Positions 7,666-31,217 are shown, numbered from the stretch's first letter. The stretch is DNA of 32,000 nt from Nitrosospira multiformis ATCC 25196 (GCF_000196355.1 NC_007614.1:2220001-2252000); one strand, 5' to 3'. Notes: generated from the letters alone by a model not told the origin. Numbers and translations are program-made.

Positions 7666-8706
7666 TCAGGGGAGGGAAACGTTCCCTTTTTTCGGAATGA
7701 GCACTGCCGCGCCTGTCAGCTTTCCTTCCCGCAATCTTGTCAAAGCCGTATTCGCTTCGCCGAGCGGAAAGGATTCCGTAGTCACGTGGATTGGCACTTG
7801 CGCTGCCAGCTTTAAAAATTCCTCACCATCCTGACGGGTAAGATTGGCAACGGAAACCAGACGTTTTTCCCGCCACAGGATGTCATAAGGAAAAGCGGGA
7901 ATGTCACTCATGTGAATTCCTCCGCAGACGACGATTCCACCGGGACAAACAGCGCGCAGAGCGATAGGCACAAGAGCTCCTGCCGGAGCGAAGATGATCG
8001 CCGCATCGAGTTCTTCCGGGGGCATCGTATCCGAACTGCCCACCCAGTCTGCGCCCATCTTGTGGGCGAATTCCTGGGCGGCCGCATCACCGGGGCGTGT
8101 AAATGCAAAAAGTCTGCACCCTTGATAATGCAGAATTTGAGCGACAATGTGGGCGGCGGCGCCAAAGCCGTAGATACCTACCCGTTCGGCATTGCCGGTC
8201 ATCTTGAGCGCGCGGTAGCCGATCAATCCGGCGCACAGCAGCGGGGCAGCTTCCAGGTCGCTATAACGGTCCGGAATGCGAAAACAATAGCGGGCGTCTG
8301 CGACCGTATATTCCGCGTAACCGCCGTCGATCTGATAACCGGTGAATCTGGCATTCGGGCACAGGTTTTCCCGTCCCTCGAGACAATAGCGGCAATGACC
8401 GCATGTCCAGCCCAGCCAGGGAATACCGATCCTGTCTCCCACTGCGAAATCCCGAACATCCGCTCCGCGTGCAATTACGCGTCCAACGATTTCATGCCCC
8501 GGGATAATAGGCAGTTTCGGATGAGGCAGTTCACCGTCCACTACGTGCAGGTCGGTGCGGCAGACTGCACACGCTGCAATCTCGATCAATAACTGATCAG
8601 GACCCGGCCGGGGGCGCGGGATACGGCGCACTTGAACCTTTTCTCGGGGCGCATCCAGCACCATTGCCTGCATCAAGCCATCTTGGTTTTGCATGGCCAT
8701 TCTCAA
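7666..8706 (-). CDS. Zinc-dependent alcohol dehydrogenase family protein
   Basis: GHEIVG and the structural zinc cysteines CGHCRYCLEGRENLC are present, as is the Rossmann motif GIYGFGAAAH. The start is uncertain: TTG 8706, ATG 8700 or ATG 8673. Confidence 0.9.
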   Translation of the reverse strand: MRMAMQNQDGLMQAMVLDAPREKVQVRRIPRPRPGPDQLLIEIAACAVCRTDLHVVDGELPHPKLPIIPGHEIVGRVIARGADVRDFAVGDRIGIPWLGWTCGHCRYCLEGRENLCPNARFTGYQIDGGYAEYTVADARYCFRIPDRYSDLEAAPLLCAGLIGYRALKMTGNAERVGIYGFGAAAHIVAQILHYQGCRLFAFTRPGDAAAQEFAHKMGADWVGSSDTMPPEELDAAIIFAPAGALVPIALRAVCPGGIVVCGGIHMSDIPAFPYDILWREKRLVSVANLTRQDGEEFLKLAAQVPIHVTTESFPLGEANTALTRLREGKLTGAAVLIPKKGNVSLP

Positions 8707-8719
8707 AAAAACAGAAAGC

Positions 8720-9829
8720 TCAAGATGCTGAACCTCCCCCTACAGTAGCAGTTCTATCGACCCAATGTGGTGGCACAAGGATGCGTCCCTTCAAGCCCAT
8801 GCTTGAATAATCTTGCAGCACCGCTTCGGAAATCTGATGCAAGGACTCCGGCTTGCATAAGGCGACGCACGCGCCTCCAAAGCCTGCTCCTGTCAAGCGC
8901 GCTCCATAAACATCAGGATGAGCCTGAAGCAGGGTCACCAATTGATCAAGTTGGGGAACCGAGACCTCATAATCGTCGCGCAAACTGGTATGGGATGCGT
9001 TCATCAGCATCCCGAACTCCGCGGCGTTGTTGCATTCCGCCGCCCGCAGCACGCGCGCGTTCTCGCTTACGATATGGCGTACCCGGCGGCCCAGCGGCTC
9101 AGGCAAAGCGTCCGCCAGTGAAATGTCATGGACTTCGCGAAGTGATTGCACTCCAAGTTGATGTGCCGCCTCTTCACACTCTGTCCGGCGCTGATTGTAA
9201 CCGCTTGTCGCAAGCGTGCGGACAACGCCTGAATCAAGTACCAGCACAGCCGAAGCAGGCGGTAAGGGAACCAGGCGCCGCTCAAGCGTAAGGGTATCCA
9301 GCAGCAAGGCCTCTCTGGTTCCCGCAAGGCTCGATGCCATCTGATCCATGATGCCACAGCGCACTCCTGCGTACTGGATTTCTGCGCGCTGAGCAAGTTG
9401 TGCGATTTGCACATCATCCAGGGGGAAACCGGTCAGCGCACGCAGGACTCGCAACGTCGCTACCTCAAGCGCTGCACTGGAGGATAGCCCTGCTCCCATC
9501 GGCACATCTGATTGAATGTAGATATCCAGCACCGGCACCTTCATCCCAACCGCGCGAGCTTCCATCAAACATCCATATACGTAGGTGGCGAAGTGCTCAG
9601 TTGGAGATTTGCCGAGAGTAAAGTAAACGATGTCATCGAGCATTTCCGAATACAATGCGTATTGCTTGCTGTTGCTATGGCTCATGCTGACACTCGTCTG
9701 CTGCTCGATTGCAATCGGCAGTACATAACCTCCGTTGTAGTCAGTATGCTCTCCCAGCAGGTTAACGCGGCCTGGGGCGCGTGCCACAAACTCAGGCGAA
9801 TCTCCAAATACAGACTCGAAACTGCTCAC
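8720..9829 (-). CDS. galK: Galactokinase
   Basis: The galactokinase signature GRVNLLGEHTDYNGG and the GHMP motif PMGAGLSSSAA are present. The GTG start has GGAGG 5 nt upstream. Confidence 0.93.
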   Translation of the reverse strand: MSSFESVFGDSPEFVARAPGRVNLLGEHTDYNGGYVLPIAIEQQTSVSMSHSNSKQYALYSEMLDDIVYFTLGKSPTEHFATYVYGCLMEARAVGMKVPVLDIYIQSDVPMGAGLSSSAALEVATLRVLRALTGFPLDDVQIAQLAQRAEIQYAGVRCGIMDQMASSLAGTREALLLDTLTLERRLVPLPPASAVLVLDSGVVRTLATSGYNQRRTECEEAAHQLGVQSLREVHDISLADALPEPLGRRVRHIVSENARVLRAAECNNAAEFGMLMNASHTSLRDDYEVSVPQLDQLVTLLQAHPDVYGARLTGAGFGGACVALCKPESLHQISEAVLQDYSSMGLKGRILVPPHWVDRTATVGGGSAS

Positions 9830-9926
9830 CCCGCCTCCATAAAATCCGGGTTGCGTTGCCTGTCTCTCCGATTTCGAGCCTCAAAGCAAATTCCGGATCG
9901 ATTGCCGGAAGAACGGCGGAATATAT

Positions 9927-11009
9927 TCATTCGACAGTAACCTCTACCTGCTGAAGCTCGCGCGCTTTTTCCTCAGGCAACGCGTCCATCGCAAAGAAGC
10001 CTGCTGCAATTTCAGTTCCTGCAAGATATTTGAGCCGCTCACGGGTGCGATAGGGGGGGTAGAATTCTGCGTGCAGGTGCGCTTCGGGATGGGCTTTTCC
10101 ATCAACCGGGGCCTGGTACCACGCCATCAGGTAGGGAAAAGGCCTCTGCCAGAGGCCATCATACTTGAGCAGAACCGTTTTCAATGCCCGCGCCAGGTCT
10201 AACCGTTGATCTGGCGTGAGGTGGACAAAGCTTTCAACCGGTTCCGTCGGGGCAAGCCAGACTTCGTACGGATAACGCGCGCATACCGGGACGAAGGCAA
10301 CAGCGTGTTCACCCTCATAAAGCATGCGTACACCCGCCTCCCGCTCCGCGATAATGAAGTCCTGCAGCACCCCACTTCCCCTCGCTTCATAGTAGTGTTG
10401 TGCCTCCTGCTGCATGCGGCTGGGGACAGGCGGCACCAGGGGGTAGGCGTAGATTTGACCATGGGGATGATGCAGCGTTACACCAACCTCCGCACCCCGG
10501 TTCTCGAATGGCAGTACATATGCAATATCCTCTCGCCGCGCCATCACAGCGGTACGCTCTGCCCATACTTCCATCAATAATTCGATGTGAGCGAGCGACA
10601 AGGCACCCAGCGAAGCTTTGGCGTCTTTCGTAAAAACTACTACCTCACAATGCCCTACAGCCGGCGCGCTTGGCACGATAAGCGAGGGAGGGTCTCCTAT
10701 TGGCCCCAGGGACGGGAAACGGTTGTCGAAGACAGCCACATCCCAGTTTCCGGCAGGCACTTCGGTAGGGTGAGACGGATCAGTTGTTATGCCGAGCGGG
10801 TTATATTCAGGGGGTGGCAGGAACGTCCGCCCCTGCCGATACGCTGCATACGTCACCCACTCTCCGCGTAACGGGTGCCATCTGAGGTGAGGATACGCGT
10901 TCAGCGGCTCCGTGAAAGGGCTGGGCGCAACGATATCAGGATTAATAGCCTCCCGGGAATACAGAATCAGCCGACGGCCATCCGGCTTGGTGAGCTCAAG
11001 CGAATACAC
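9927..11009 (-). CDS. galT: Galactose-1-phosphate uridylyltransferase
   Basis: The active-site motif [11 protein letters not shown] (H-x-H-x-Q) is present and the length is 360 aa. The GTG start directly abuts the upstream stop codon (TAG|GTG). Confidence 0.9.
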
Positions 11010-12791
11010 CTAAACACCCCCGGGTATATAGGTGGGCGAGATGCGCGTGACGCGGGCGATTTGCTCAATGGGAATCTTGGGAGTACGATCCGCGCACAGC
11101 AGTCCGTTCGCTTCCTGAAAGGTATCGGCAAACTGGGTATAGCAAAAGCCGCTGAAGAGAGCCGTATGAATCACTGTATGCATCAACTCGGCATACATAC
11201 GCGCAAATTCCTCTTCGGCGTGGGCAACAGTATAGCCCCAAGTATGCTCGACGCCGGGTTGCGGGCACTTGGCGAAAGCAATCCCCCCGAATTCGCTTAA
11301 CATGATCGGCTGGCCTCGATGCGGGTAGCCATCAAGGGTGAGAATCCGCCCCCCCGGGCGCCGACGGTCGAACAACTGTTCAGGTTTTATTTCGGCGCCA
11401 TAACGCTGGCGCAGATGTTCAATGTTTGCGTCATAATCGTGAATACCGATGATATCCGTAGCACTGCTTTCCCATCCATCGTTGCCGATTACCGGGCGCG
11501 TCGCATCCAGGGTTTTGGTCAAGTGATATAGTGCCTCGACAGCGTGCCGCTGTTTACGGACCGCGGTAAGTTCCGGTACTCCCCAGGATTCATTGAAAGG
11601 TACCCATACAATGACGCAGGGATGGCTGTAATCCCGCTCGATGGCCTCCGTCCATTCCCGCACCATCCTCTTGATGGCGCTGCGGGTGAAGCGATATGCG
11701 GAAGGCATTTCTTCCCATACCATCAGCCCGAGCCTGTCCGCCCAATAAAGATAGCGCGGGTCCTCTATCTTTTGATGCTTGCGCACCCCGTTGAAGCCCA
11801 TTGCCTTTGCAAGTTCCACATCGCCTCGCAGGGCGTCGTCGCTTGGCGCAGCCAGCAGCGTCTCCGGCCAGTAGCCCTGGTCAAGCACGAGCCTCAGCGT
11901 GTAGGGACGACCGTTCAGCATGAAGCGGTCGCGCAGGATGTTGACGGAACGCATTGCAGTGTAGGAGATGAACTCGTCGACCACCTCCTCGCCCCGCATC
12001 AGTCGTACAACAGCATCGATCAAGGTGGGACGTTCCGGGCTCCATAGCAACTCATTACGAAAATCATCAATTCCAGGGTCAGACAATATGATGACGCGGT
12101 CTACTTCCCGTTCGACTACCCGATAGCGGTCATGCGCGAGCAACTGCTCCCCGTGGCGCAAGCATACGTCTACTGCCAGTTCGTCGGCCTCTTCTCCTAT
12201 TACGCGCGCTTCGAAGCCTATCGCATATATCTCGACCTGGGGCGTCCACCGAATCTTTTCAATGTAATTTTCGGATACCCGCTCGATCCAGACCATCTGC
12301 CAGATGCCAGTGGTACGGGGATACCAGATGGCATGAGGCTCGAGCTGCCAATCCTGCTTTCCACGCGGTTTGGCCAGCTCGTGCGGATCGTCCTCCACCT
12401 GTACCGTCACCTTCTGTTTTCCGGATGGATCGAGCAGAGGGGTGATGTCCCCCCAGAATGGAGTATGCCCCCCTTCGTGGCTGGCGGCAAAACGACCGTT
12501 GACCCATACCTTTGCGGAGTAGTCCACGGCACCGAAATGCAGGATTACCCGCTCCGAGGAGGGCTCGAAATCAAAATCGCGCTCATACCAGCAGAGTGAA
12601 TGAAAACTGCGGTCACCGATTCCGCTTGCCTCGGATTCGGGTGGAAACGGCACGATGATTTCCATCGGCCAGGATTCTATCTGAGAGGGGTGAGTAAAAG
12701 TACGCGCCTCGTCGTAGCGAAAGCGCCAGACTCCGTTGAGCGAGGTCCAATTGGAGCGCTGCATCTGCGGTCGAGGGTGCGCGAACTTCAA
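11010..12791 (-). CDS. Glycoside hydrolase family 2 (beta-galactosidase/beta-glucuronidase-like)
   Basis: 593 aa. The N-terminus is HPRPQMQRSNWTSLNGVWRF. The acid/base motif is FNESWG and the nucleophile region is MLSEFGG. The TTG start has AGGAGG 8 nt upstream. Confidence 0.85.
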   Translation of the reverse strand: MKFAHPRPQMQRSNWTSLNGVWRFRYDEARTFTHPSQIESWPMEIIVPFPPESEASGIGDRSFHSLCWYERDFDFEPSSERVILHFGAVDYSAKVWVNGRFAASHEGGHTPFWGDITPLLDPSGKQKVTVQVEDDPHELAKPRGKQDWQLEPHAIWYPRTTGIWQMVWIERVSENYIEKIRWTPQVEIYAIGFEARVIGEEADELAVDVCLRHGEQLLAHDRYRVVEREVDRVIILSDPGIDDFRNELLWSPERPTLIDAVVRLMRGEEVVDEFISYTAMRSVNILRDRFMLNGRPYTLRLVLDQGYWPETLLAAPSDDALRGDVELAKAMGFNGVRKHQKIEDPRYLYWADRLGLMVWEEMPSAYRFTRSAIKRMVREWTEAIERDYSHPCVIVWVPFNESWGVPELTAVRKQRHAVEALYHLTKTLDATRPVIGNDGWESSATDIIGIHDYDANIEHLRQRYGAEIKPEQLFDRRRPGGRILTLDGYPHRGQPIMLSEFGGIAFAKCPQPGVEHTWGYTVAHAEEEFARMYAELMHTVIHTALFSGFCYTQFADTFQEANGLLCADRTPKIPIEQIARVTRISPTYIPGGV

Positions 12792-12982: not shown

Positions 12983-13075
12983 TGGCGGAGAGAGAGGGAT
13001 TCGAACCCTCGATAAGCTTTTTGAGCCTATACTCCCTTAGCAGGGGAGCGCCTTCGACCACTCGGCCATCTCTCC
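12983..13075 (-). tRNA. tRNA-Ser (anticodon GCU)
   Basis: The minus strand reads GGAGAGATGGCCGAGTGGTCGAAGGCGCTCCCCTGCTAAGGGAG...long variable arm...GAGGGTTCGAATCCCTCTCTCTCCGCCA. The cloverleaf is complete, the anticodon loop is CT-GCT-AA, and the CCA is encoded. Confidence 0.95.
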
Positions 13076-16621: not shown

Positions 16622-17098
16622 ATGCTGAATCAACCCGTTCCCGATTTTGAACTTCCTTCGACCAGTAATAAGACATTTCGTTTATCCGCAACCCGTGAAA
16701 AGAACCTGGTCATCTATTTCTATCCAAAGGATGATACGCCGGGATGCACCACCGAAGGCCAGGAATTCCGGGATGCTTACACCGAATTTACCGATGCCGA
16801 TTGCGACATAGTGGGTATTTCGCGTGACAACATCAAGTCTCATGAGAAATTCAAGGCAAAAATGAATTTTCCGTTCGAATTGCTGAGCGACACGGACGAG
16901 ACGGTTTGCAACCTGTTCGGGGTGATGAAGATGAAAAACATGTACGGTAAGCAGGTTCGTGGCATCGATCGGAGCACATTCGTGGTCGACACCAAAGGGA
17001 TACTCCGGCGCGAATGGCGAAGTGTCAAAGTGACGGGGCATGTCCAGGAAGTCCTGGAGTTTGTGAAAACCCTGCCCAACGAGAATCATGAGTCCTAG
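16622..17098 (+). CDS. bcp: Thiol peroxidase / peroxiredoxin Bcp
   Basis: The sequence FYPKDDTPGCTTEG and a length of 158 aa fit the family. Confidence 0.9.
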   Translation: MLNQPVPDFELPSTSNKTFRLSATREKNLVIYFYPKDDTPGCTTEGQEFRDAYTEFTDADCDIVGISRDNIKSHEKFKAKMNFPFELLSDTDETVCNLFGVMKMKNMYGKQVRGIDRSTFVVDTKGILRREWRSVKVTGHVQEVLEFVKTLPNENHES

Positions 17099-18539
17099 AA
17101 AGCCGAGATCTCCCACGGCTCCCAATTCATCTGCTTCCATCGCTCCGATCCCCCGTCTGATGCCCAAGCTGTTTGTGCTCGACAGCAACGTGCTCATGCA
17201 CGACCCCACCAGCCTGTTCCGCTTTCAGGAACATGACATCTATATCACGATGACAACGCTGGAGGAACTCGACAACAACAAGAAAGGGATGTCGGAGGTT
17301 GCCCGCAATGCACGTCAAACAAGCCGTTTTCTGGATGAAATCGTCAGCAGCGCGATAACCGATATTGACGAAGGCATTTCTTTACAGTTGCATGGCACCA
17401 AGAATGCAACCGGCAGGCTGTTCCTCCAGACGCAGGCGATCACGAACGTCTTGCCGGTATATCTGGCAAGCGGCAGCGCGGACAACCAGATTATCGGAGC
17501 AGTCAAGTTTTTGCACGATACCCACCAGAACCGCGTGGTCACACTGGTTTCCAAAGACATCAACATGCGGATCAAGGCGCGAGCCTTGGGGCTGGCAGCG
17601 GAGGACTATTTCAATGACAAGGTTCTGGAAGACACTGATGTCCTCTTCTCAGGCATCCAGGAACTGCCAGAGGATTTCTGGGATGAACACGGCAAGGACA
17701 TGGAGTCCTGGCAGCAGTCGGGGCAGACATTTTATCGTGTGACCGGCCCCCTTGCCGGGGGTTTTGTAATCAATCAATTCGTCTATCTGGAGCATGACAA
17801 ACCGTTTTACGCGCAGGTCAAGGAGACTAGCGGAAGAACTGCCGTTCTGCAGACGCTGAAAGATTATACTCATCAAAAGAACAATGTGTGGGGCATCACG
17901 GCGCGGAATCGCGAGCAGAATTTCGCGTTCAACCTGCTGATGAACCCGGAAGTGGATTTCGTCACCCTGCTGGGGCAGGCAGGTACCGGCAAGACGTTGC
18001 TTACACTGGCAGCAGGTCTGATGCAGACACTGGAGCACAAGGTATACTCCGAAATCATCATGACGCGCGTGACGGTGCCAGTGGGGGAGGATATCGGATT
18101 TCTGCCCGGAACCGAGGAAGAAAAGATGACTCCCTGGATGGGGGCACTGGAAGACAACCTGGACGTGCTCAACAAGACGGATAGCAGCGCCGGAGAATGG
18201 GGACGAGCAGCGACGCTCGATCTGATTCGCTCCCGCATCAAGATAAAATCGCTCAACTTCATGCGCGGGCGCACTTTCATCAATAAGTTCCTGATAATCG
18301 ACGAAGCGCAGAACCTGACACCCAAGCAGATGAAAACGCTTATTACCCGTGCCGGCCCTGCCACAAAGGTCGTGTGCCTGGGTAACATCGCGCAGATAGA
18401 TACGCCCTACTTGTCGGAGGGAAGCTCAGGGTTGACCTACGTGGTGGACCGGTTCAAGGGATGGAATCACAGCGGGCACGTCACGCTGCAACGTGGTGAG
18501 CGTTCCAGACTGGCGGATTATGCTGCAGAGATACTATAA
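17088..18539 (+). CDS. PhoH-like ATPase with N-terminal PIN domain (YlaK-like)
   Basis: The PIN start is LFVLDSNVLMHDP...LEELD. The Walker A motif is GQAGTGKT and the Walker B region is LIIDEAQN. ATG 17088 overlaps the bcp stop by 11 nt. An alternative start at 17160 (MPKLFVLD) matches family N-termini better. Confidence 0.9.
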   Translation: MSPRKPRSPTAPNSSASIAPIPRLMPKLFVLDSNVLMHDPTSLFRFQEHDIYITMTTLEELDNNKKGMSEVARNARQTSRFLDEIVSSAITDIDEGISLQLHGTKNATGRLFLQTQAITNVLPVYLASGSADNQIIGAVKFLHDTHQNRVVTLVSKDINMRIKARALGLAAEDYFNDKVLEDTDVLFSGIQELPEDFWDEHGKDMESWQQSGQTFYRVTGPLAGGFVINQFVYLEHDKPFYAQVKETSGRTAVLQTLKDYTHQKNNVWGITARNREQNFAFNLLMNPEVDFVTLLGQAGTGKTLLTLAAGLMQTLEHKVYSEIIMTRVTVPVGEDIGFLPGTEEEKMTPWMGALEDNLDVLNKTDSSAGEWGRAATLDLIRSRIKIKSLNFMRGRTFINKFLIIDEAQNLTPKQMKTLITRAGPATKVVCLGNIAQIDTPYLSEGSSGLTYVVDRFKGWNHSGHVTLQRGERSRLADYAAEIL

Positions 18540-24918: not shown

Positions 24919-25005
24919 GCCCAGATGGCGGAATTGGTAGACGCACTAGGTTCAGGTCCTAGCGGTGGCAACACTGTGGAGGTTCGAGTCCTCTTCTGGG
25001 CACCA
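24919..25005 (+). tRNA. tRNA-Leu (anticodon CAG)
   Basis: GCCCAGATGGCGGAATTGGTAGACGCACTAGGTTCAGGTCCTAG...GGAGGTTCGAGTCCTCTTCTGGGCACCA. The anticodon loop is TT-CAG-GT, the variable arm is long, and the CCA is encoded. Confidence 0.95.
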
Positions 25006-25189: not shown

Positions 25190-25215
25190 GATAGCTGTAA
25201 AATTTTACAGCTATC
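25190..25215. promoter_or_regulatory. 26-bp perfect palindrome with a CTG-N10-CAG core (lux-box-like)
   Basis: GATAGCTGTAAAA|TTTTACAGCTATC is exactly self-complementary. The inner 20 bp AGCTGTAAAATTTTACAGCT matches 14/20 positions of the V. fischeri lux box ACCTGTAGGATCGTACAGGT as I remember it. Confidence 0.5.
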
Positions 25216-25672
25216 CACGCCCTGCGATCTGTTGTCTCATAACATGCTCCTGTGCCAAAAGAAATGAGACTCTGACTACCGCAACAGGTTGTCTTGCTGC
25301 ACATGAATGACGCTTTGGCGAATCCGGAAGGCAATGTGTTTCATCCGACACCAGAAGGCGCAGGTAGGCATGCTCGATAAGCTGATTGGGATAACTGGCT
25401 GGTAAAGTGAATCCGATTCTCGCCGTTAAAGACTTGTGTTCAAGAAGTCCAGCTTGCGTTTCTATCATGATCCGTAAATATATTCCAGCTGGGCTGTTAT
25501 CTTTGGTTACGAACTCTGGCAAGGGATCCAATAAGGCGAAAACAACGAGATTCTACCGGGAAAGCAAGGATATTCTGACGAAAATCCCTGCTGGCACGCC
25601 GCTCGAATTATCCCCTCCGGGGGCGATTTTAAATTCTTTCGACTTGAATTACAGTTGCTTGAGCTCATCCAG

Positions 25673-26455
25673 ATGAACGATATTGTGACCGCCTTTAACG
25701 AATATTTCGAAGTTGTCGACGCCGACACTCCGGAGCGATTGCAGGATGTATTTCGCCTTCGTTACCAAGTGCTCTGTATCGAGCAGCGTCTGCCTGGATT
25801 TGAAGCTTCACGCTATCCTGATGGGTGCGAATGTGACAGTTACGATGCTCATTCCTCTCATATGCTTCTTCGTCACCGTCCATCCGGCGATTTTGTCGGA
25901 ACCGCTCGCCTGATACTCCCGGATCCGCTGACTCCCGAAAAACCCTTTCCTATCGAACAGCATGCGCAACTGGATCCATTTTTCAATATCAACCGGTTAC
26001 CTCGGCAACATGCAGCCGAAGTATCTCGCCTGCTCGTCGTACGCCGATTCAGGCGGCGTAAAGGGGATAGCGGCGGGCCAGAAAATGAAATAGTTGTTGA
26101 AGACAGAGCTATAGAAAAACCACGCCGCTTCCCTCACCCGGTCCTCGCGCTTGCTGTTGGCCTGATCCGCATGTCCGCTGCTCATCACATAACTCATTGG
26201 CTATCGATCATGGACCCTGCCCTGAACAGGCTGTTAACCCTCTATGGGCTCCAGCACGATCCCGTGGGCCCATTGATTGAGCATCACGGTCAGCGTCGAC
26301 CTTATCACGTCGACTTGTCCGCCATGTTGAACAGAATGCATGAAAGTCATCCTCTGATTTGGGAACTTGTTACTGATTTCGGCAGGAGCCTGCCAGCACC
26401 TCCAGGGTCGGCTCCAGTACCTATCTCCACCGTTCTTGCTGATATTGAAAAATAA
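25673..26455 (+). CDS. LuxI-superfamily/GNAT acyltransferase resembling the PEP-CTERM/exosortase-associated N-acyl amino acid synthase family
   Basis: FNEYFEVVDADT...VFRLRYQVLCIEQ...E.DSYD.HS.HMLLRHRPSGDFVGTARL...AAEVSRLLVVRRFRRR fits the pattern I recall for the exosortase-associated acyltransferase family (TIGR03694-like). I chose the start at ATG 25673; the ORF track uses TTG 25655. Confidence 0.7.
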   Translation: MNDIVTAFNEYFEVVDADTPERLQDVFRLRYQVLCIEQRLPGFEASRYPDGCECDSYDAHSSHMLLRHRPSGDFVGTARLILPDPLTPEKPFPIEQHAQLDPFFNINRLPRQHAAEVSRLLVVRRFRRRKGDSGGPENEIVVEDRAIEKPRRFPHPVLALAVGLIRMSAAHHITHWLSIMDPALNRLLTLYGLQHDPVGPLIEHHGQRRPYHVDLSAMLNRMHESHPLIWELVTDFGRSLPAPPGSAPVPISTVLADIEK

Positions 26456-26609: not shown

Positions 26610-27059
26610 GTGACAATTAAAATAAAAATCGGTCATCTGATTTCGTCTATATGCCTGCTACTCGGCCTTTTATTCATGGCGGGTAAAACGTGCGCAGTCG
26701 AGCCCTACGAGATCATCACGAACTCGGGCGTCCACGAAAAAACCCTTTCCAAGAACGCCTTGCGCGCCATATTCGGCATGCGCCTGCATACATGGCCGGA
26801 CGGCAGTCCCATTCATGTGTTCGTACTTCCGGATGAAGCCCCCCTGCACATCGCGTTCTCCAAGGAAAAACTGAATGTTTTTCCCTATCAACTCCGCGCA
26901 GCATGGGACCGGCTGGTGTTCTCGGGTACAGGACAGGCACCGGAAACAGTCGCTTCTCCAGAGGAGATGCTTGCAAAAGTCGGTAGCACACCCGGAGCAA
27001 TTGGCTATTTAACCCGATCCAGAATGGATGGCAGTGTAAATGTTCTACACGTCAAGTAA
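26610..27059 (+). CDS. Small secreted PstS/PBP-like-2 domain protein (149 aa, about half the size of a periplasmic binding protein)
   Basis: The signal peptide is ...LLGLLFMAGKTCA|VEP. LRAIFGMRLHTWPDGSPIHVF...VGSTPGAIGYL fits the phosphate-binding-protein-like fold motif (PGAIGY). The start codon is GTG. Confidence 0.7.
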   Translation: MTIKIKIGHLISSICLLLGLLFMAGKTCAVEPYEIITNSGVHEKTLSKNALRAIFGMRLHTWPDGSPIHVFVLPDEAPLHIAFSKEKLNVFPYQLRAAWDRLVFSGTGQAPETVASPEEMLAKVGSTPGAIGYLTRSRMDGSVNVLHVK

Positions 27060-28287
27060 CCCCATTCCCCGCTGTTTGACGCGAGCGATTATCCGGCTCG
27101 TCGTGGTGGGTGCTGCCCTTTCGAATTGTATTGCTTACGCGCAAAAACTGCCGATTCCCCAGAACCTGCCGAACAACCTGCAAATACATGGTTTTGTTAG
27201 CCAGAGTTGGCTCAAGAGCACGGACAACAATAACGTTTTCGGGAAAAGCAGTTCCGATAGTGGAAGTTTTGACTTCAGGGAATTGGGACTGAATGCTTCC
27301 ATGAGGCCCAAGCCCAACCTCCAGTTTTCGGCTCAGATGATTTCCCGCACTGCGGGAAAAGGAAGTCCGGGCAATATCCGGTTCGATTACGGATTCATCG
27401 ATTATGCGTTTCTATCGGAAGAAAACAGCAAGATAGGAATACGCCTGGGCAGGATGAAGAATCCGCTCGGCTTTTACAACGACACACGCGACGTTCCCTT
27501 CACGCGGCCCAGCATACTTTTACCTCAATCCATCTACTTCGATCGCACGCGCAAATTGGGGATTGCAGCAGATGGGGTACATTTATACGGTGAATACCGT
27601 TTCGAGCACGGCGTCCTGTCTTTTCAGGGTGGACCGGTACGTCCACTAGTCAGAGGTGCTGAAGCAGAAGTAGCGCTGTTGGGCCAGGGGATGCCAGGCC
27701 ATCTTGCTCCAGACATCTCCTATATTGGCCGTATAAGCTACGAACTCGACGAGGGCCGGCTTCGTTTTGCAGTCAGCGGAACGAATTTGAACATAGATTA
27801 TGACCCCGCAAGCGGGGACCGGCTTGGCGCGGGCTCAATTCGCTTTACACCTCTCATTTTCTCCGCGCAATATAACGCAGAACGCTGGAGTTTCACTTCG
27901 GAATACGCGATACGCCATTTCGAATATAAAAATTTTGGCAGGGCGGCCCTCAATCTGGATTTCTTTGGCGAAAGCTATTACCTTCAGGGAGCTTATCGAA
28001 TCACGCCGGAATTGGAAGCGATCGCTCGCTACGACGTACTGTATACGGACAGTAATGACCGCAGCGGAAAAAAATGGGCAGCGGCTACAGGCGGCGATCC
28101 GCATCGGCGGTTTGCTAAAGACATTACCGTAGGGTTGCGCTGGAACGTCACGCCTGAGTTCATGTTGCGCGCCGAGTATCACCGCGTGAACGGAACAGGC
28201 TGGCTTTCGACTCTTGACAATCCCAATTCGGGAGACCTTTCACCGCATTGGAATCTGTTTTCCATTCTCGGCTCCTACCGGTTCTAG
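27040..28287 (+). CDS. Outer-membrane beta-barrel (porin-like) protein
   Basis: The signal peptide ends ...AALSNCIAYA|Q. Alternating beta-strand-like sequence runs throughout. The C-terminal signature is ...LGSYRF. ATG 27040 overlaps the upstream gene by 20 nt. In-frame TTG 27076 would give a more typical signal peptide. Confidence 0.7.
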   Translation: MFYTSSNPIPRCLTRAIIRLVVVGAALSNCIAYAQKLPIPQNLPNNLQIHGFVSQSWLKSTDNNNVFGKSSSDSGSFDFRELGLNASMRPKPNLQFSAQMISRTAGKGSPGNIRFDYGFIDYAFLSEENSKIGIRLGRMKNPLGFYNDTRDVPFTRPSILLPQSIYFDRTRKLGIAADGVHLYGEYRFEHGVLSFQGGPVRPLVRGAEAEVALLGQGMPGHLAPDISYIGRISYELDEGRLRFAVSGTNLNIDYDPASGDRLGAGSIRFTPLIFSAQYNAERWSFTSEYAIRHFEYKNFGRAALNLDFFGESYYLQGAYRITPELEAIARYDVLYTDSNDRSGKKWAAATGGDPHRRFAKDITVGLRWNVTPEFMLRAEYHRVNGTGWLSTLDNPNSGDLSPHWNLFSILGSYRF

Positions 28288-28289
28288 AC

Positions 28290-31217
28290 ATGCTGCAGGA
28301 TAAGTATTTTCATAATCAGGCTATGCAGAGAAATGGAGCGATAGCACCTGAAAAGCCCCAAAAATTTCTGGGACTGAAATGGAAAGTTTTGTTGCTGAGC
28401 AGCCTTATACTGATTGCCATCGTAGTCTCATTCACTGGGATTACCTATCTGAGCCTGATGGATGACTTCGAGAGCCAGAGAAATGCCCAGCACCAGCGCT
28501 ATGCCAAGGAAGTTGAAGGACTGATCGACCAGGTTTCGATAAATTTGCATCAACTCGCCGGATTGATTCCTTTCCTGGAAGGAATGGATAAAAGTCTGCT
28601 CTCAGGTAACAAGGAATACGTCACCCAAGCATTTGATCCATATTGGTCGCCTTTGCAACTCAATAAAGGTATCGAATTGCTGCGTTTTTACGATAGCTCA
28701 AACCAGCAATTGGCAGGATGGGGAACTTCCCAGCCTAATACTTACGACGCATTGATGTCAGCCTGGGTGCACGAGGTGAATGCCCAGGAAAAGCCGATGA
28801 GCCATCTCAGCTGCCCCACCAGCTGCATGCAGTTTGCCGTGGCACCCTTGCTCGTGGAAGGTAACAACGTCGGCGTGATCGTCATCGGAACGCCCCTGGT
28901 CGATGTGATTCTGGGTTTCAAGGATATCTCGGGTGCCGATATCGCATTGCTGGTGAGGGAAAAAGGCGATTTGCCCGAAAGCAACAAGGTGAAAATTGCA
29001 AACTGGGATGTCACGCTTGCGGCACACAGCAGGGAAATGAACATTACTGTTCTGGATGAAGTTGCAGCGAATTATCCGGACCTGGAGAGTCTGGAGGAGG
29101 GCATCCTGGTTTCGTGGCACGATAGACACCTCCAGATAAAGCCGCTGTTTCTGGAGAGAATGGCCGTGTCGGAAGATGGTGCTCGCTTCATGGTTGTAAC
29201 TGACATCACCTCCACGATCCGCACCATTCACAGCTCGACCCAGCAAAACATGATAATCGGCGTGGTCGGGCTCATATTCTCTGAAATACTGCTGTTCATC
29301 ATTCTCACCAAGCCACTGTCGAGGCTCAAGCACATCGTTTTTACTCTCCCTCTTCTGGCCCGCAGCAGTTTCAAGAATTTTCGCCTGGAGCTTCGCTCTG
29401 CCGGCCAGAAACGATGGATGAAAGATGAAATTGACCTGCTGGATGAAACAGCGGTGGCCCTGTCACATCAACTGGAGAAGCTCGAGGATCAGGTGGCGGA
29501 CAGGACCCGTATACTGGCCAGCAAGATGGACGAGCTAAGCAAGGAGAGGGATTTCATTAACAATCTGCTGGACATTGCGCAAGTAATCGTAATCACGCAA
29601 AAGGCGGATGGCGAGATTCTCACACTCAATGCCTATGGTGAAACGCTTATTCAGTATACGGAAAAAGAACTGCAGGGAACGCCCTTTCTCCATCTTCTGG
29701 CACTCGATGGAAATCTGCACGACCTTCCCGTTCACCTGGAAGAGGTGCGGTGCCAACGAAGAGACCAGCTTCGGCACGAAGCGAATGTCGTATGCAAGGA
29801 TGCTTCCATTCGTAATATTCTGTGGCTGCATTCACGCCTCACCCGGCACAGCGAGGATGACCCCGCAATGTTATCGGTGGGTCTCGACATGACGGAACAC
29901 AAGCGTGCTGAAGGGCGTCTTGCCTGGCTGGCGGATCATGATCCGCTCACGGATCTTTTCAATCGCCGCCGCTTCCAGGAAGAACTGGAACAGATGCTGA
30001 ATCTTGCCGCGCGTTACGGGTACTCGGGAGCCTTGCTCTTTTTTGACCTTGATCAGTTCAAATACATCAACGATACCAGCGGGCATCAGGCGGGGGATGC
30101 CTTGCTTAAAATGGTCGCGCGTCTGCTGCTTGGCAATATTCGCAGCGTCGACATACTTGGCCGCCTGGGAGGCGATGAATTCGCAGTGATTTTGCCCCAA
30201 ACGACAGCCGAAGGGGCGATAGAAGTGGCAAAAAATACGCTTGCGAGCCTGAATCAGGGAAAGATTACGATAAATGGTCGCACTCATAAAGCGTCAGCCA
30301 GCGTCGGTATCGCACTTTTTCCGGAGCACGGCAGCAATGTCCATGATCTCCTGGCCGCAGCCGATCTCGCCATGTATCAGGCAAAGGAAGCCGGACGAGG
30401 AGGATGGCATTTGTTTTCTGACGAAGAGAAAACACGTGAACGCATGCATACTCTTGTCTATTGGAAGGAGAAGATTGAGTATGCTCTTTCACACGAACGT
30501 TTCCTGTTCTATTTCCAGCCCATCATGCATGTTCGACGCAGGACCATCGATCATTACGAGGTGCTGCTTCGCATGATCGACAATGATGGAACTGTTCTTG
30601 CACCCCAGTTTTTCATCCCCGCCGCGGAACAGACAGGTCTTATTCATGCCATCGACCATATGGTTTTACGTAAATCCATTGCGCAATCAGCTGAAATACA
30701 ACGCGCCGGTCAGTGCATCCGTTTTTCCATAAACTTGTCGGCGCATGCATTTCACGATCCGGAACTGCTGCCGATACTGAAAGATGCATTTGCCGAGTAT
30801 GGCGCGGATCCATCGAATTTCATGTTTGAAATAACCGAGACAGCAGCGCTTGAGGATTTGCCCGCGGCGCGGGAACTCATGGAGATGATTAAAAAGCTGG
30901 GCTGCAGTTTCACGCTGGATGATTTCGGTGTCGGTTTCTCCTCCTTCTATTACATCCGGCAACTGCCGATCGATGTTGTAAAGATCGATGGCTCCTTCAT
31001 ACGAAATCTGGCAGACAGCCCCGATGACCAAATACTGGTGCAGGCTTTGTGCGATGTGGCAAGGGGATTCGGAAAGAAGACAACGGCGGAGTTCGTGGAA
31101 AATGCAGCGACCTTTTCAATCCTTGAGAAAATGCAGATCGACTATGCCCAGGGATTTTTGATTGGAACGCCTTCTCCCGCTTATGACACATCGTTCAGCG
31201 ATTTCGCGAAGATGTGA
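28290..31217 (+). CDS. Transmembrane sensor with periplasmic domain, PAS, GGDEF and EAL domains (dual diguanylate cyclase/phosphodiesterase)
   Basis: TM1 is VLLLSSLILIAIVVSF, followed by a periplasmic region of about 270 aa and TM2 IIGVVGLIFSEILLFIIL. The GGDEF motif is intact (RLGGDEFAV), with the I-site RSVD 5 aa upstream. EAL motifs are EVLLR, FQPI, EITE, DDFGVGFSS, KIDGSF and QGF. I chose the start at ATG 28290, 2 nt after the porin stop; the ORF track uses 28248. Confidence 0.9.
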   Translation: MLQDKYFHNQAMQRNGAIAPEKPQKFLGLKWKVLLLSSLILIAIVVSFTGITYLSLMDDFESQRNAQHQRYAKEVEGLIDQVSINLHQLAGLIPFLEGMDKSLLSGNKEYVTQAFDPYWSPLQLNKGIELLRFYDSSNQQLAGWGTSQPNTYDALMSAWVHEVNAQEKPMSHLSCPTSCMQFAVAPLLVEGNNVGVIVIGTPLVDVILGFKDISGADIALLVREKGDLPESNKVKIANWDVTLAAHSREMNITVLDEVAANYPDLESLEEGILVSWHDRHLQIKPLFLERMAVSEDGARFMVVTDITSTIRTIHSSTQQNMIIGVVGLIFSEILLFIILTKPLSRLKHIVFTLPLLARSSFKNFRLELRSAGQKRWMKDEIDLLDETAVALSHQLEKLEDQVADRTRILASKMDELSKERDFINNLLDIAQVIVITQKADGEILTLNAYGETLIQYTEKELQGTPFLHLLALDGNLHDLPVHLEEVRCQRRDQLRHEANVVCKDASIRNILWLHSRLTRHSEDDPAMLSVGLDMTEHKRAEGRLAWLADHDPLTDLFNRRRFQEELEQMLNLAARYGYSGALLFFDLDQFKYINDTSGHQAGDALLKMVARLLLGNIRSVDILGRLGGDEFAVILPQTTAEGAIEVAKNTLASLNQGKITINGRTHKASASVGIALFPEHGSNVHDLLAAADLAMYQAKEAGRGGWHLFSDEEKTRERMHTLVYWKEKIEYALSHERFLFYFQPIMHVRRRTIDHYEVLLRMIDNDGTVLAPQFFIPAAEQTGLIHAIDHMVLRKSIAQSAEIQRAGQCIRFSINLSAHAFHDPELLPILKDAFAEYGADPSNFMFEITETAALEDLPAARELMEMIKKLGCSFTLDDFGVGFSSFYYIRQLPIDVVKIDGSFIRNLADSPDDQILVQALCDVARGFGKKTTAEFVENAATFSILEKMQIDYAQGFLIGTPSPAYDTSFSDFAKM

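Follow-up and report, generated by a model that had tools for sequence, protein, structure and literature searches.

A porin, a single-lobe PstS-like protein and a GGDEF-EAL sensor in Nitrosospira multiformis: a conserved cassette and a candidate extracytoplasmic input to cyclic di-GMP signaling

In a 32,000-nucleotide stretch of the Nitrosospira multiformis ATCC 25196 genome (GCF_000196355.1, NC_007614.1:2220001-2252000; hereinafter the window, from whose first letter positions are counted), three tightly packed plus-strand genes at 26610–31217 code for a small secreted protein with one lobe of the PstS-type periplasmic binding protein (PBP) fold, an outer-membrane porin-like β-barrel, and an inner-membrane sensor that combines GGDEF and EAL domains and is thus placed to act on cyclic di-GMP (c-di-GMP). 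Directly upstream lies a gene for the type of N-acyl amino acid synthase associated with PEP-CTERM/exosortase systems. The arrangement of the three genes recurs in more than 140 non-identical loci, which is far from chance. We propose that the porin and the single-lobe protein, the latter as a co-receptor, constitute a sensory input module for a transmembrane transducer, and that the product of the synthase may be the signal where that gene is present; as both the contacts and the ligand are inferred, we hold this reading with roughly even confidence. The full-text literature searched contains no published description of the cassette, an earlier mention of neighboring genes in Craig et al. 2011 being possible. 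The initial annotation of this DNA had delineated a three-gene operon: its three genes are real and tightly packed, with all open reading frames confirmed at 26610–27059, 27040–28287 and 28290–31217, while the fourth conserved gene (25655–26455), just beyond its limits, had been overlooked. The closest database matches, 90% identical for the small protein and 99% for the porin, agree with an origin in N. multiformis or a near relative. The features of the cassette are as follows.

25655..26455, + strand: PEP-CTERM/exosortase-associated N-acyl amino acid synthase (acyltransferase), from TIGR03694 and Pfam Acetyltransf_5
26610..27059, + strand: secreted single-lobe PstS-like protein (lobe of a type II PBP), 149 aa, from its AlphaFold2 model, Foldseek and hidden Markov model (HMM) alignments
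27040..28287, + strand: outer-membrane 16-strand porin-like β-barrel, 415 aa, from Pfam Porin_O_P, AlphaFold2, Foldseek and the names of homologues
28290..31217, + strand: inner-membrane sensor, 975 aa, with a first transmembrane segment, dCache_3, a second transmembrane segment, a linker, a PAS-like region, GGDEF and EAL, from Pfam and motifs
28485..29141, + strand: periplasmic dCache_3 domain of the sensor, Pfam PF14827, residues 80–298 (TTG-start numbering)
29571..29813, + strand: weak PAS-like cytoplasmic region of the sensor, sub-threshold in Pfam (PAS 16.4 bits against a cut-off of 22.6)
29931..30398, + strand: GGDEF domain, GGDEF motif intact, I-site RSVD (RxxD), from Pfam and motifs
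30471..31172, + strand: EAL domain with EVL, EITE, DDFG, KID and QG, from Pfam and motifs

The proteins of the cassette and their gene junctions

The small protein begins with a hydrophobic N-terminal signal segment (residues 7–30); as it has no lipobox, its candidacy as a lipoprotein was rejected. Pfam PBP_like_2 matches it at 26.9 bits, just short of the cut-off of 27, over no more than positions 96–187 of the 267 in the model, and the profile of its own family aligns to residues ~78–187 of the 265-aa PstS structures. The AlphaFold2 model, computed from a 58-sequence alignment, has a predicted local distance difference test (pLDDT) value of 94, and in a Foldseek search against the PDB its top 36 matches are PstS structures, the TM-score against PstS being 0.62 when normalized by the query and 0.36 when normalized by the target. 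Taken together, the span of the PBP_like_2 match, the alignment to PstS, the model and the TM-scores make us confident that the protein is predicted to fold as one complete contiguous lobe, corresponding to the middle one in the type II fold, and that no broken gene is involved. The two-lobed hinge (Venus flytrap) that characterizes PstS proteins is missing, and what is present is a one-lobe PstS fold with the xPGAIGY hinge-strand motif, as the TPGAIGY at residues 127–133 aligns with the (s/t)PGAI(s)Y of 4exl and 4ecf. The initial annotation had already recognized a secreted 149-aa protein with a PGAIGY motif that covers about half of a PstS-type fold, with which the signal segment, the profile span and the TM-scores agree; however, what it viewed as half of a two-lobed fold is a complete contiguous lobe instead of a truncated fragment. 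A PBP lobe that is naturally free-standing bears on the evolution of two-lobed binding proteins and on how co-receptors can work.

The ligand-binding residues of PstS are not retained in this lobe. In the profile alignment, the TREASSGT of 1twy, which supplies the lobe-II phosphate ligands (an arginine and the Ser-Gly-Thr helix cap), aligns to LPDD-PLH in the family. The FSGTG motif of the small protein was considered as a PstS phosphate loop and discarded, since the PstS SGT cap falls on P78-L79-H80 in the structure-guided alignment; FSGTGQAP sits instead in a family-specific inserted helix. The most conserved motif of the family is FPYQLRxxWDRLVFSGTGQAP, whose helix has no counterpart in PstS. 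An exhaustive profile search recovered 5115 representatives of the family at 50% identity with E ≤0.001, among them 232 with E ≤1e-30, and nearly all of the best 150 of these 5115 are 140–200 aa long. Rosetta-stone fusions were sought in the family, and its long members (211–295 aa) add only low-complexity Pro/Ala/Ser tails or N-terminal extensions. There is no dedicated Pfam or NCBIfam model for the family, and the NCBIfam scan gave no match.

The second gene product opens with a signal-like segment and has YRF at its C-terminus. It matches Pfam Porin_O_P (PF07396) weakly, with 26.6 bits over the whole protein against a cut-off of 20.9 and no single stretch that passes, and the NCBIfam scan gave no match; many of its homologues carry a precomputed PF07396 match and are named “OprO/OprP family porin” or “porin” in their source. 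The AlphaFold2 model (pLDDT 76) has 16 strands, and Foldseek matches it to general porins, to OprP (2o4v, TMq 0.58) and to AlgE. This agrees with its earlier description as a full β-barrel ending in YRF, unlike an OmpA/Pal-like lipoprotein: the Pfam scan found no OmpA C-terminal domain in it, the only related match being OmpA_membrane at 20.6 bits, below the cut-off, and a lipobox is likewise absent. We read the outer-membrane protein as porin-like, with a probable distant kinship to OprO/OprP. Porins of the OprP type are 16-strand barrels in which an arginine ladder or lysine cluster gives anion selectivity. In the alignment of homologues of the cassette porin, the invariant residues R135, R138, K140, R150, R156, R169 and R171 define an Arg-rich loop (~135–171), and the longest non-strand segment of the model (residues ~140–176) holds much of the invariant sequence. 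In the model this loop would look like a solute-selective constriction loop, bearing in mind that it is modeled at low confidence and that its position in the pore is a prediction only.

The sensor is anchored by two transmembrane segments (residues 26–58 and 319–344) that bracket ~260 periplasmic residues, close to the domain of about 270 aa that had been put forward for it. Its Pfam scores are 65.5 bits for dCache_3, 162.9 bits for GGDEF and 228.3 bits for EAL; the PAS region is weak or faint in its homologues too. While it had been labeled an inner-membrane cyclase, which holds insofar as it is a membrane c-di-GMP enzyme with a GGDEF domain, it also has a full EAL domain and is hence not a cyclase alone. 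The catalytic motifs are intact in ~95% of 112 non-identical family members: the GGDEF signature is GGDEF in 94 and GSDEF in 14, the I-site RxxD is kept in 106 of the 108 with a recognizable motif, and E[VA]L and DDFG are each present in 105. From these motifs the sensor appears to be of the dual diguanylate cyclase/phosphodiesterase type. No sequence relative of its periplasmic domain was found in the PDB. Within the dCache_3 domain, a C-x3-C pair (SCPTSC; 28800–28830 of the window), both cysteines of which are conserved in at least 90% of 104 sensors, is among the few invariant positions and could either form a structural disulfide or respond to redox conditions.

The three genes adjoin one another closely. 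The small gene starts with GTG, and the porin could start either at an ATG at 27040, overlapping the small gene by 20 nt, or at an alternative TTG at 27076, leaving a gap of 16 nt; the ATG of the sensor (28290) lies 2 nt downstream of the porin stop codon. All of these codon positions match the junctions given in the initial annotation. Because the N-terminus MYxRSN is common to the porin homologues, we favor the overlapping ATG as the start of the porin. When the most upstream ATG is taken as the porin start, 134 of 142 non-identical loci show the overlap with the end of the small gene, with 32 nt as its most frequent length, and the gap between porin and sensor is 0–30 nt in 96 of 117 loci. 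The overlapping starts make co-translation of the cassette genes plausible.

Conservation, permutation and co-variation of the cassette

Two sets of loci were compared. A scan seeded by 10 sequences, with one genome per species, yielded 80 loci from the Nitrosomonadaceae set (Nitrosospira, Nitrosovibrio, Nitrosomonas, one Sideroxydans metagenome-assembled genome (MAG), and two Burkholderiales MAGs), and a metagenome scan seeded with a distant subfamily yielded a further 80 loci, which were annotated with purpose-built HMMs; the denominators are the loci with enough sequence, and the misses are partly an artifact of spacing thresholds. In the Nitrosomonadaceae set the porin directly follows the small gene in 69/73 loci, the sensor directly follows the porin in 63/68, and the synthase is directly upstream in 74/74; with tblastn, every sufficiently long Nitrosomonadaceae locus displays the order acyltransferase, small protein, porin, sensor. 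Since the outer flanks differ between genera, with the RNase R and chorismate synthase genes being kept only in Nitrosospira and Nitrosovibrio, the four genes are a conserved unit. The initial annotation had staked its proposal on the triad being conserved outside this genome and had suggested a survey of small PBP-like genes with a porin-like gene and a GGDEF/EAL sensor. The triad is indeed found well outside it: among the distant metagenome loci the porin directly follows the small gene in 59/60 and the sensor directly follows the porin in 46/53, with the synthase being directly upstream in 29/68. Of the 53 distant loci in which a sensor would fit, a further two carry it at another place in the locus and four lack it; in the distant loci L110, L119, L153 and L164 the sensor is upstream on the opposite strand.

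The order of the four genes is also permuted, and parts of the cassette are duplicated. In Halomonas sp. PA16-9 (L167, NZ_CP040452.1, 5776–11255) it is small protein, porin, sensor, acyltransferase, and a metagenome contig from JGI has two synthase genes followed by the triad. One distant locus (L113, 3928–12172) contains acyltransferase, small protein and porin twice in tandem, followed by a porin fragment and a single sensor, the tandem copies being identical at 49% for the synthase, 61% for the small protein and 66% for the porin. Nitrosococcus halophilus has synthase, small protein and porin with no adjacent sensor, and a Nitrospiria MAG (L081) has all four genes, with the synthase ahead of the triad, plus a second sensor paralogue. 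The gene content of the cassette, the predicted folds of its products, the integrity of their motifs, and the synteny with its permutations are what the analysis shows. As side observations, the second dCache_3-PAS-GGDEF-EAL paralogue of the Nitrospiria MAG (L081, 3430–6321) lies ~0.9 kb upstream of the acyltransferase, with a YCII-family gene in between, and the Halomonas cassette resides on a 1.8-Mb replicon with almost no annotation in the plasmid collection.

Beyond these, tblastn against plasmids and chromids recovered relatives of the small protein at ~30% identity, each of which adjoins a protein of 375–400 aa with ...YVF, ...DFVF or ...DVVF at its C-terminus. Of five such neighbors, four match the porin HMM weakly (E 4e-8 to 2e-6), the Ideonella neighbor being the one that does not (E 0.26), and that of Pseudoalteromonas is also a member of Pfam Porin_4. 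In Burkholderia sp. PAMC 26561 the barrel and the small protein are followed by a PAS-GAF-GGDEF-EAL protein. On plasmids of Massilia putida (L171, 4788–9510) and Ideonella dechloratans (L172, 4677–10607) they are followed by a methyl-accepting chemotaxis protein, downstream of which is a PAS-GGDEF or MASE11-PAS-GGDEF-EAL protein, i.e., a cyclase or cyclase/phosphodiesterase; the periplasmic region of these two chemoreceptors gave no Pfam match. Alteromonas and Pseudoalteromonas have the small protein and porin only. Looking up cluster names yielded no further taxa. Thus, from these distant variants, with GGDEF-EAL proteins, with chemoreceptors or without a sensor, the pair of porin and lobe is the deepest unit and serves different transducers.

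To assess co-variation, we calculated pairwise distances over 104 non-identical loci and the partial correlations between them, controlling for the GGDEF-EAL region. These are 0.68 between the small protein and the porin, 0.68 between the small protein and the periplasmic domain of the sensor, and 0.72 between the porin and that domain, as compared to 0.40 between the small protein and the PAS region. The extracytoplasmic parts hence co-vary more with each other than the small protein does with PAS, which is suggestive and would fit a lobe that needs a partner. The proportion of columns conserved at 90% or more is 28% in the small protein, 24% in the porin, 24% in the catalytic region and 8% in the periplasmic domain of the sensor.

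The synthase, the proposed mechanism and its rivals

The product of the upstream gene is a clear member of the TIGR03694 family of PEP-CTERM/exosortase-associated N-acyl amino acid synthases, scoring 301.6 bits against a cut-off of 111.95 over model positions 2–239 of 241; it also matches Pfam Acetyltransf_5 and, weakly, the 4-coumaroyl-homoserine lactone synthase 6wn0 of the LuxI type in the PDB. Its true start is likely the ATG at 25673. Passages of PMC4897644 and PMC7293339 credit Craig et al. 2011 with linking this acyltransferase family to PEP-CTERM/exosortase genomes, and a passage of PMC11072679 states that disruption of a homologue in Methylomonas LW13 removed a polysaccharide band. 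Further, the part of PMC1569441 that lists PEP-CTERM/EpsH-positive organisms includes Nitrosomonas europaea and Nitrosococcus oceani, with an N. multiformis protein as the top EpsH match there. This published context of the family supports a link to matrix production. Neither the exosortase EpsH nor PEP-CTERM proteins were found in the 32-kb window, and the rest of the window was dismissed as a PEP-CTERM context, consisting as it does of housekeeping genes and a gal cluster. The literature searched yielded no receptor or response pathway for the lipids made by these synthases and no link between them and the porin, PBP-lobe and GGDEF-EAL cassette, and the cassette is a concrete candidate for such a perception pathway (porin, periplasmic lobe, c-di-GMP enzyme).

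We posit that the dedicated OprO/P-like porin would pass a specific, probably anionic, small molecule through the outer membrane, and that the single-lobe protein would act as a periplasmic co-receptor, either presenting this ligand to dCache_3 or completing a binding site together with it. The sensor might then shift the balance between synthesis of c-di-GMP by GGDEF and its breakdown by EAL. In the nitrifiers and many other carriers, the signal would most likely be the acyl-amino-acid product of the synthase or a derivative thereof: with the synthase gene recurring, permuted and co-duplicated, its product is our foremost candidate for the ligand in these lineages. The outcome would be an autocrine loop, akin to quorum sensing, by which c-di-GMP is tuned and thereby also the production of exopolysaccharide and the PEP-CTERM matrix. 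The protein–protein contacts, the identity of the ligand, the direction of the regulation and its downstream target are those elements of this proposal that we infer. The carriers include the ammonia oxidizers Nitrosospira, Nitrosomonas and Nitrosococcus, and aggregation and biofilm formation by ammonia oxidizers matter for wastewater treatment and soil nitrogen loss.

The nearest functional model for such a module is NspS–MbaA, in which a secreted PBP-fold gene likewise stands next to one for an inner-membrane GGDEF-EAL enzyme with a periplasmic domain. As described in passages of PMC8079147 and PMC5646818, this Vibrio cholerae binding protein signals the presence of a small molecule to the enzyme, altering the turnover of c-di-GMP. 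The control of a membrane GGDEF-EAL enzyme by a binding protein is thus already known from NspS–MbaA; however, NspS is a full two-lobed PotD-like protein, as opposed to the single PstS-type lobe of the cassette, and that system has no dedicated porin or signal synthase. Moreover, the periplasmic domain of the cassette sensor is a dCache_3 domain, and the cassette has no detectable homology to the NspS–MbaA partners beyond GGDEF and EAL. New features of the cassette are a single lobe that stands alone, a porin of its own, the frequent partnership with the synthase and the portability to chemoreceptors. LamB–MalE–Tar, LuxP–LuxQ and TorT–TorS are receptors that depend on a binding protein, which in these systems is a whole Venus flytrap and in most cases works for an ABC transporter as well. 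With the LamB–MalE–Tar type the cassette shares the logic of an outer-membrane channel, a periplasmic binding protein and a transmembrane transducer, the Massilia and Ideonella variants even using actual chemoreceptors; in contrast to it, the cassette has a single lobe, no transporter gene and its three genes in one operon. Extending the proposal, the lobe and its private porin might represent a new portable extracytoplasmic input module for GGDEF-EAL enzymes or chemoreceptors, with the lobe forming a split site with its partner or a homodimeric proto-Venus-flytrap, and with long-chain N-acyl amino acids serving in nitrifiers and PEP-CTERM bacteria as unrecognized autoinducers that are read out as c-di-GMP controlling aggregation and matrix. 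As a joint claim we offer this only tentatively, its prospects being well short of even.

Several observations weigh against the input-module reading. The dCache_3 domain is so poorly conserved relative to the small protein that a fixed docking surface is not obvious, and mirror-tree correlations such as those above can arise from shared rate variation without physical contact. The synthase is not found within 8 kb in 39/68 of the distant loci; for its product to be the ligand everywhere, the gene would have to be located elsewhere in these cases or the signal be supplied by neighboring cells. Long-chain acyl amino acids are hydrophobic, and the usual route for such molecules through the outer membrane is by FadL-type channels rather than a porin. 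Finally, no sensor adjoins the small-protein and porin genes of Nitrosococcus, Alteromonas and Pseudoalteromonas, whether the synthase is there or not.

Other explanations of the cassette have to be weighed on the same evidence. The initial annotation had viewed the genes as an architecture parallel to YfiBNR (TpbB/HmsCDE) that was built from unrelated parts. This stands with respect to the unrelated families and the three compartments, as both systems have periplasmic, outer-membrane and inner-membrane proteins for the control of c-di-GMP, but there the parallel ends. The YfiN type has a periplasmic PAS-like domain, HAMP and GGDEF, with no EAL. YfiB is a Pal/OmpA-like lipoprotein and YfiN has GGDEF only, whereas the cassette has a porin, an EAL domain and another gene order. 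Pfam and NCBIfam scans revealed no YfiR-type family in the 149-aa protein and no OmpA/Pal peptidoglycan-binding lipoprotein of the YfiB type, and NF007423 (DgcN/YfiN) gave 159 bits on the sensor against a cut-off of 325, over the GGDEF region only, which places it outside the YfiN type. A YfiBNR-like envelope-stress switch would nevertheless be conceivable, in which the small protein constitutively binds and represses (or activates) the sensor until the outer-membrane protein sequesters it upon envelope perturbation, with no small-molecule ligand. The matching compartments and tightly coupled genes, the co-variation of the three extracytoplasmic parts, a single lobe that plausibly needs a protein partner, and a conserved periplasmic C-x3-C that could respond to the redox or envelope state are all in keeping with it. 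We still consider such a switch unlikely given the lack of homology to YfiR, YfiB and YfiN beyond a generic GGDEF, and given that the outer-membrane component is an integral porin whose invariant Arg-rich loop is typical of a solute channel and which has neither a lipobox nor a periplasmic peptidoglycan-binding domain. It also leaves the synthase unexplained, and the presence of the pair with chemoreceptors, or without a sensor beside a signal synthase, is unexpected for a sensor-specific repressor; these settings point to ligand entry and presentation rather than to YfiR-style sequestration of a repressor.

The synthase is central to another possibility, namely that the cassette is an export or handling route in which N-acyl amino acids fresh from the synthase are carried through the periplasm by the small protein and released by the barrel at the surface as a surfactant, matrix lipid or signal, the sensor being a co-regulated neighbor or a monitor of the periplasmic load. 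Its presence in all 74 Nitrosomonadaceae loci, the sensorless trio of Nitrosococcus halophilus, and the joint duplication of the same three genes in L113 would all be accounted for in this way. However, over half of the distant loci consist of small protein, porin and sensor with no synthase in the vicinity, the distant variants join the pair to chemoreceptors, whose role is to receive and not to export, the PstS-type lobe is a fold for polar ligands with no known use as a lipid carrier, and no inner-membrane exporter is encoded in the cassette, all of which render this route improbable. The remaining explanation starts from the OprP/OprO plus PstS uptake pair, whose members are the nearest relatives of the porin and the small protein in sequence and structure: a phosphate-type anion sensor. 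On this view phosphate, pyrophosphate, phosphonate or another anion like them would enter through the porin and bind to the lobe, c-di-GMP would be tied to nutrient status by way of the sensor, and the synthase would be unrelated. That both extracytoplasmic proteins have their closest relatives in phosphate-uptake families (PBP_like_2/PstS and Porin_O_P/OprP) and that the loop of the porin has many invariant Arg and Lys residues speak for it. Yet the cassette differs from that pair in having one lobe, replaced phosphate ligands, a porin with only a weak family match (26.6 bits), no PstCAB and a signaling output. With the canonical PstS half-site lost (R...SSGT of 1twy versus LPDD.PLH) and the other lobe missing, no pst or pho genes nearby in the 32-kb window, and the persistent link to a lipid-amino-acid synthase left unexplained, we regard an anion sensor of this kind as quite improbable.

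Flanking DNA and the rest of the window

A potential regulatory element and two tRNA genes were identified outside the coding regions.

25190..25215, no strand: perfect 26-nt palindrome GATAGCTGTAAAATTTTACAGCTATC, its CTG-N10-CAG core resembling a lux box, ~190 nt downstream of tRNA-Leu and ~460 nt upstream of the synthase start
24919-25005, + strand: tRNA-Leu(CAG)
12983-13075, − strand: tRNA-Ser(GCT)

The palindrome occurs at the equivalent upstream site in 29 Nitrosospira/Nitrosovibrio loci, where the adjoining intergenic DNA is otherwise unalignable, and is absent from the Nitrosomonas loci. We regard it as a candidate operator that a dimeric regulator might bind, and assign it to the cassette only tentatively. 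At Rfam gathering thresholds the window contains the two tRNAs only and no riboswitch, and a promoter and terminator scan gave sites no more numerous than in shuffled sequence. The tRNA-Leu(CAG) gene lies between RNase R and the cassette, a position that is kept across Nitrosospira.

Elsewhere in the window, the minus-strand genes at 7666–12791 code for a GH2 glycosidase, a galactose-1-phosphate uridylyltransferase, a galactokinase and a zinc alcohol-dehydrogenase-like protein. One would not expect a galactose pathway of the Leloir type in a chemolithoautotroph that oxidizes ammonia; it may serve the recycling of exopolysaccharide sugars. The plus-strand gene at 17088–18539 codes for a 483-aa fusion of a PIN domain to a PhoH-like ATPase.

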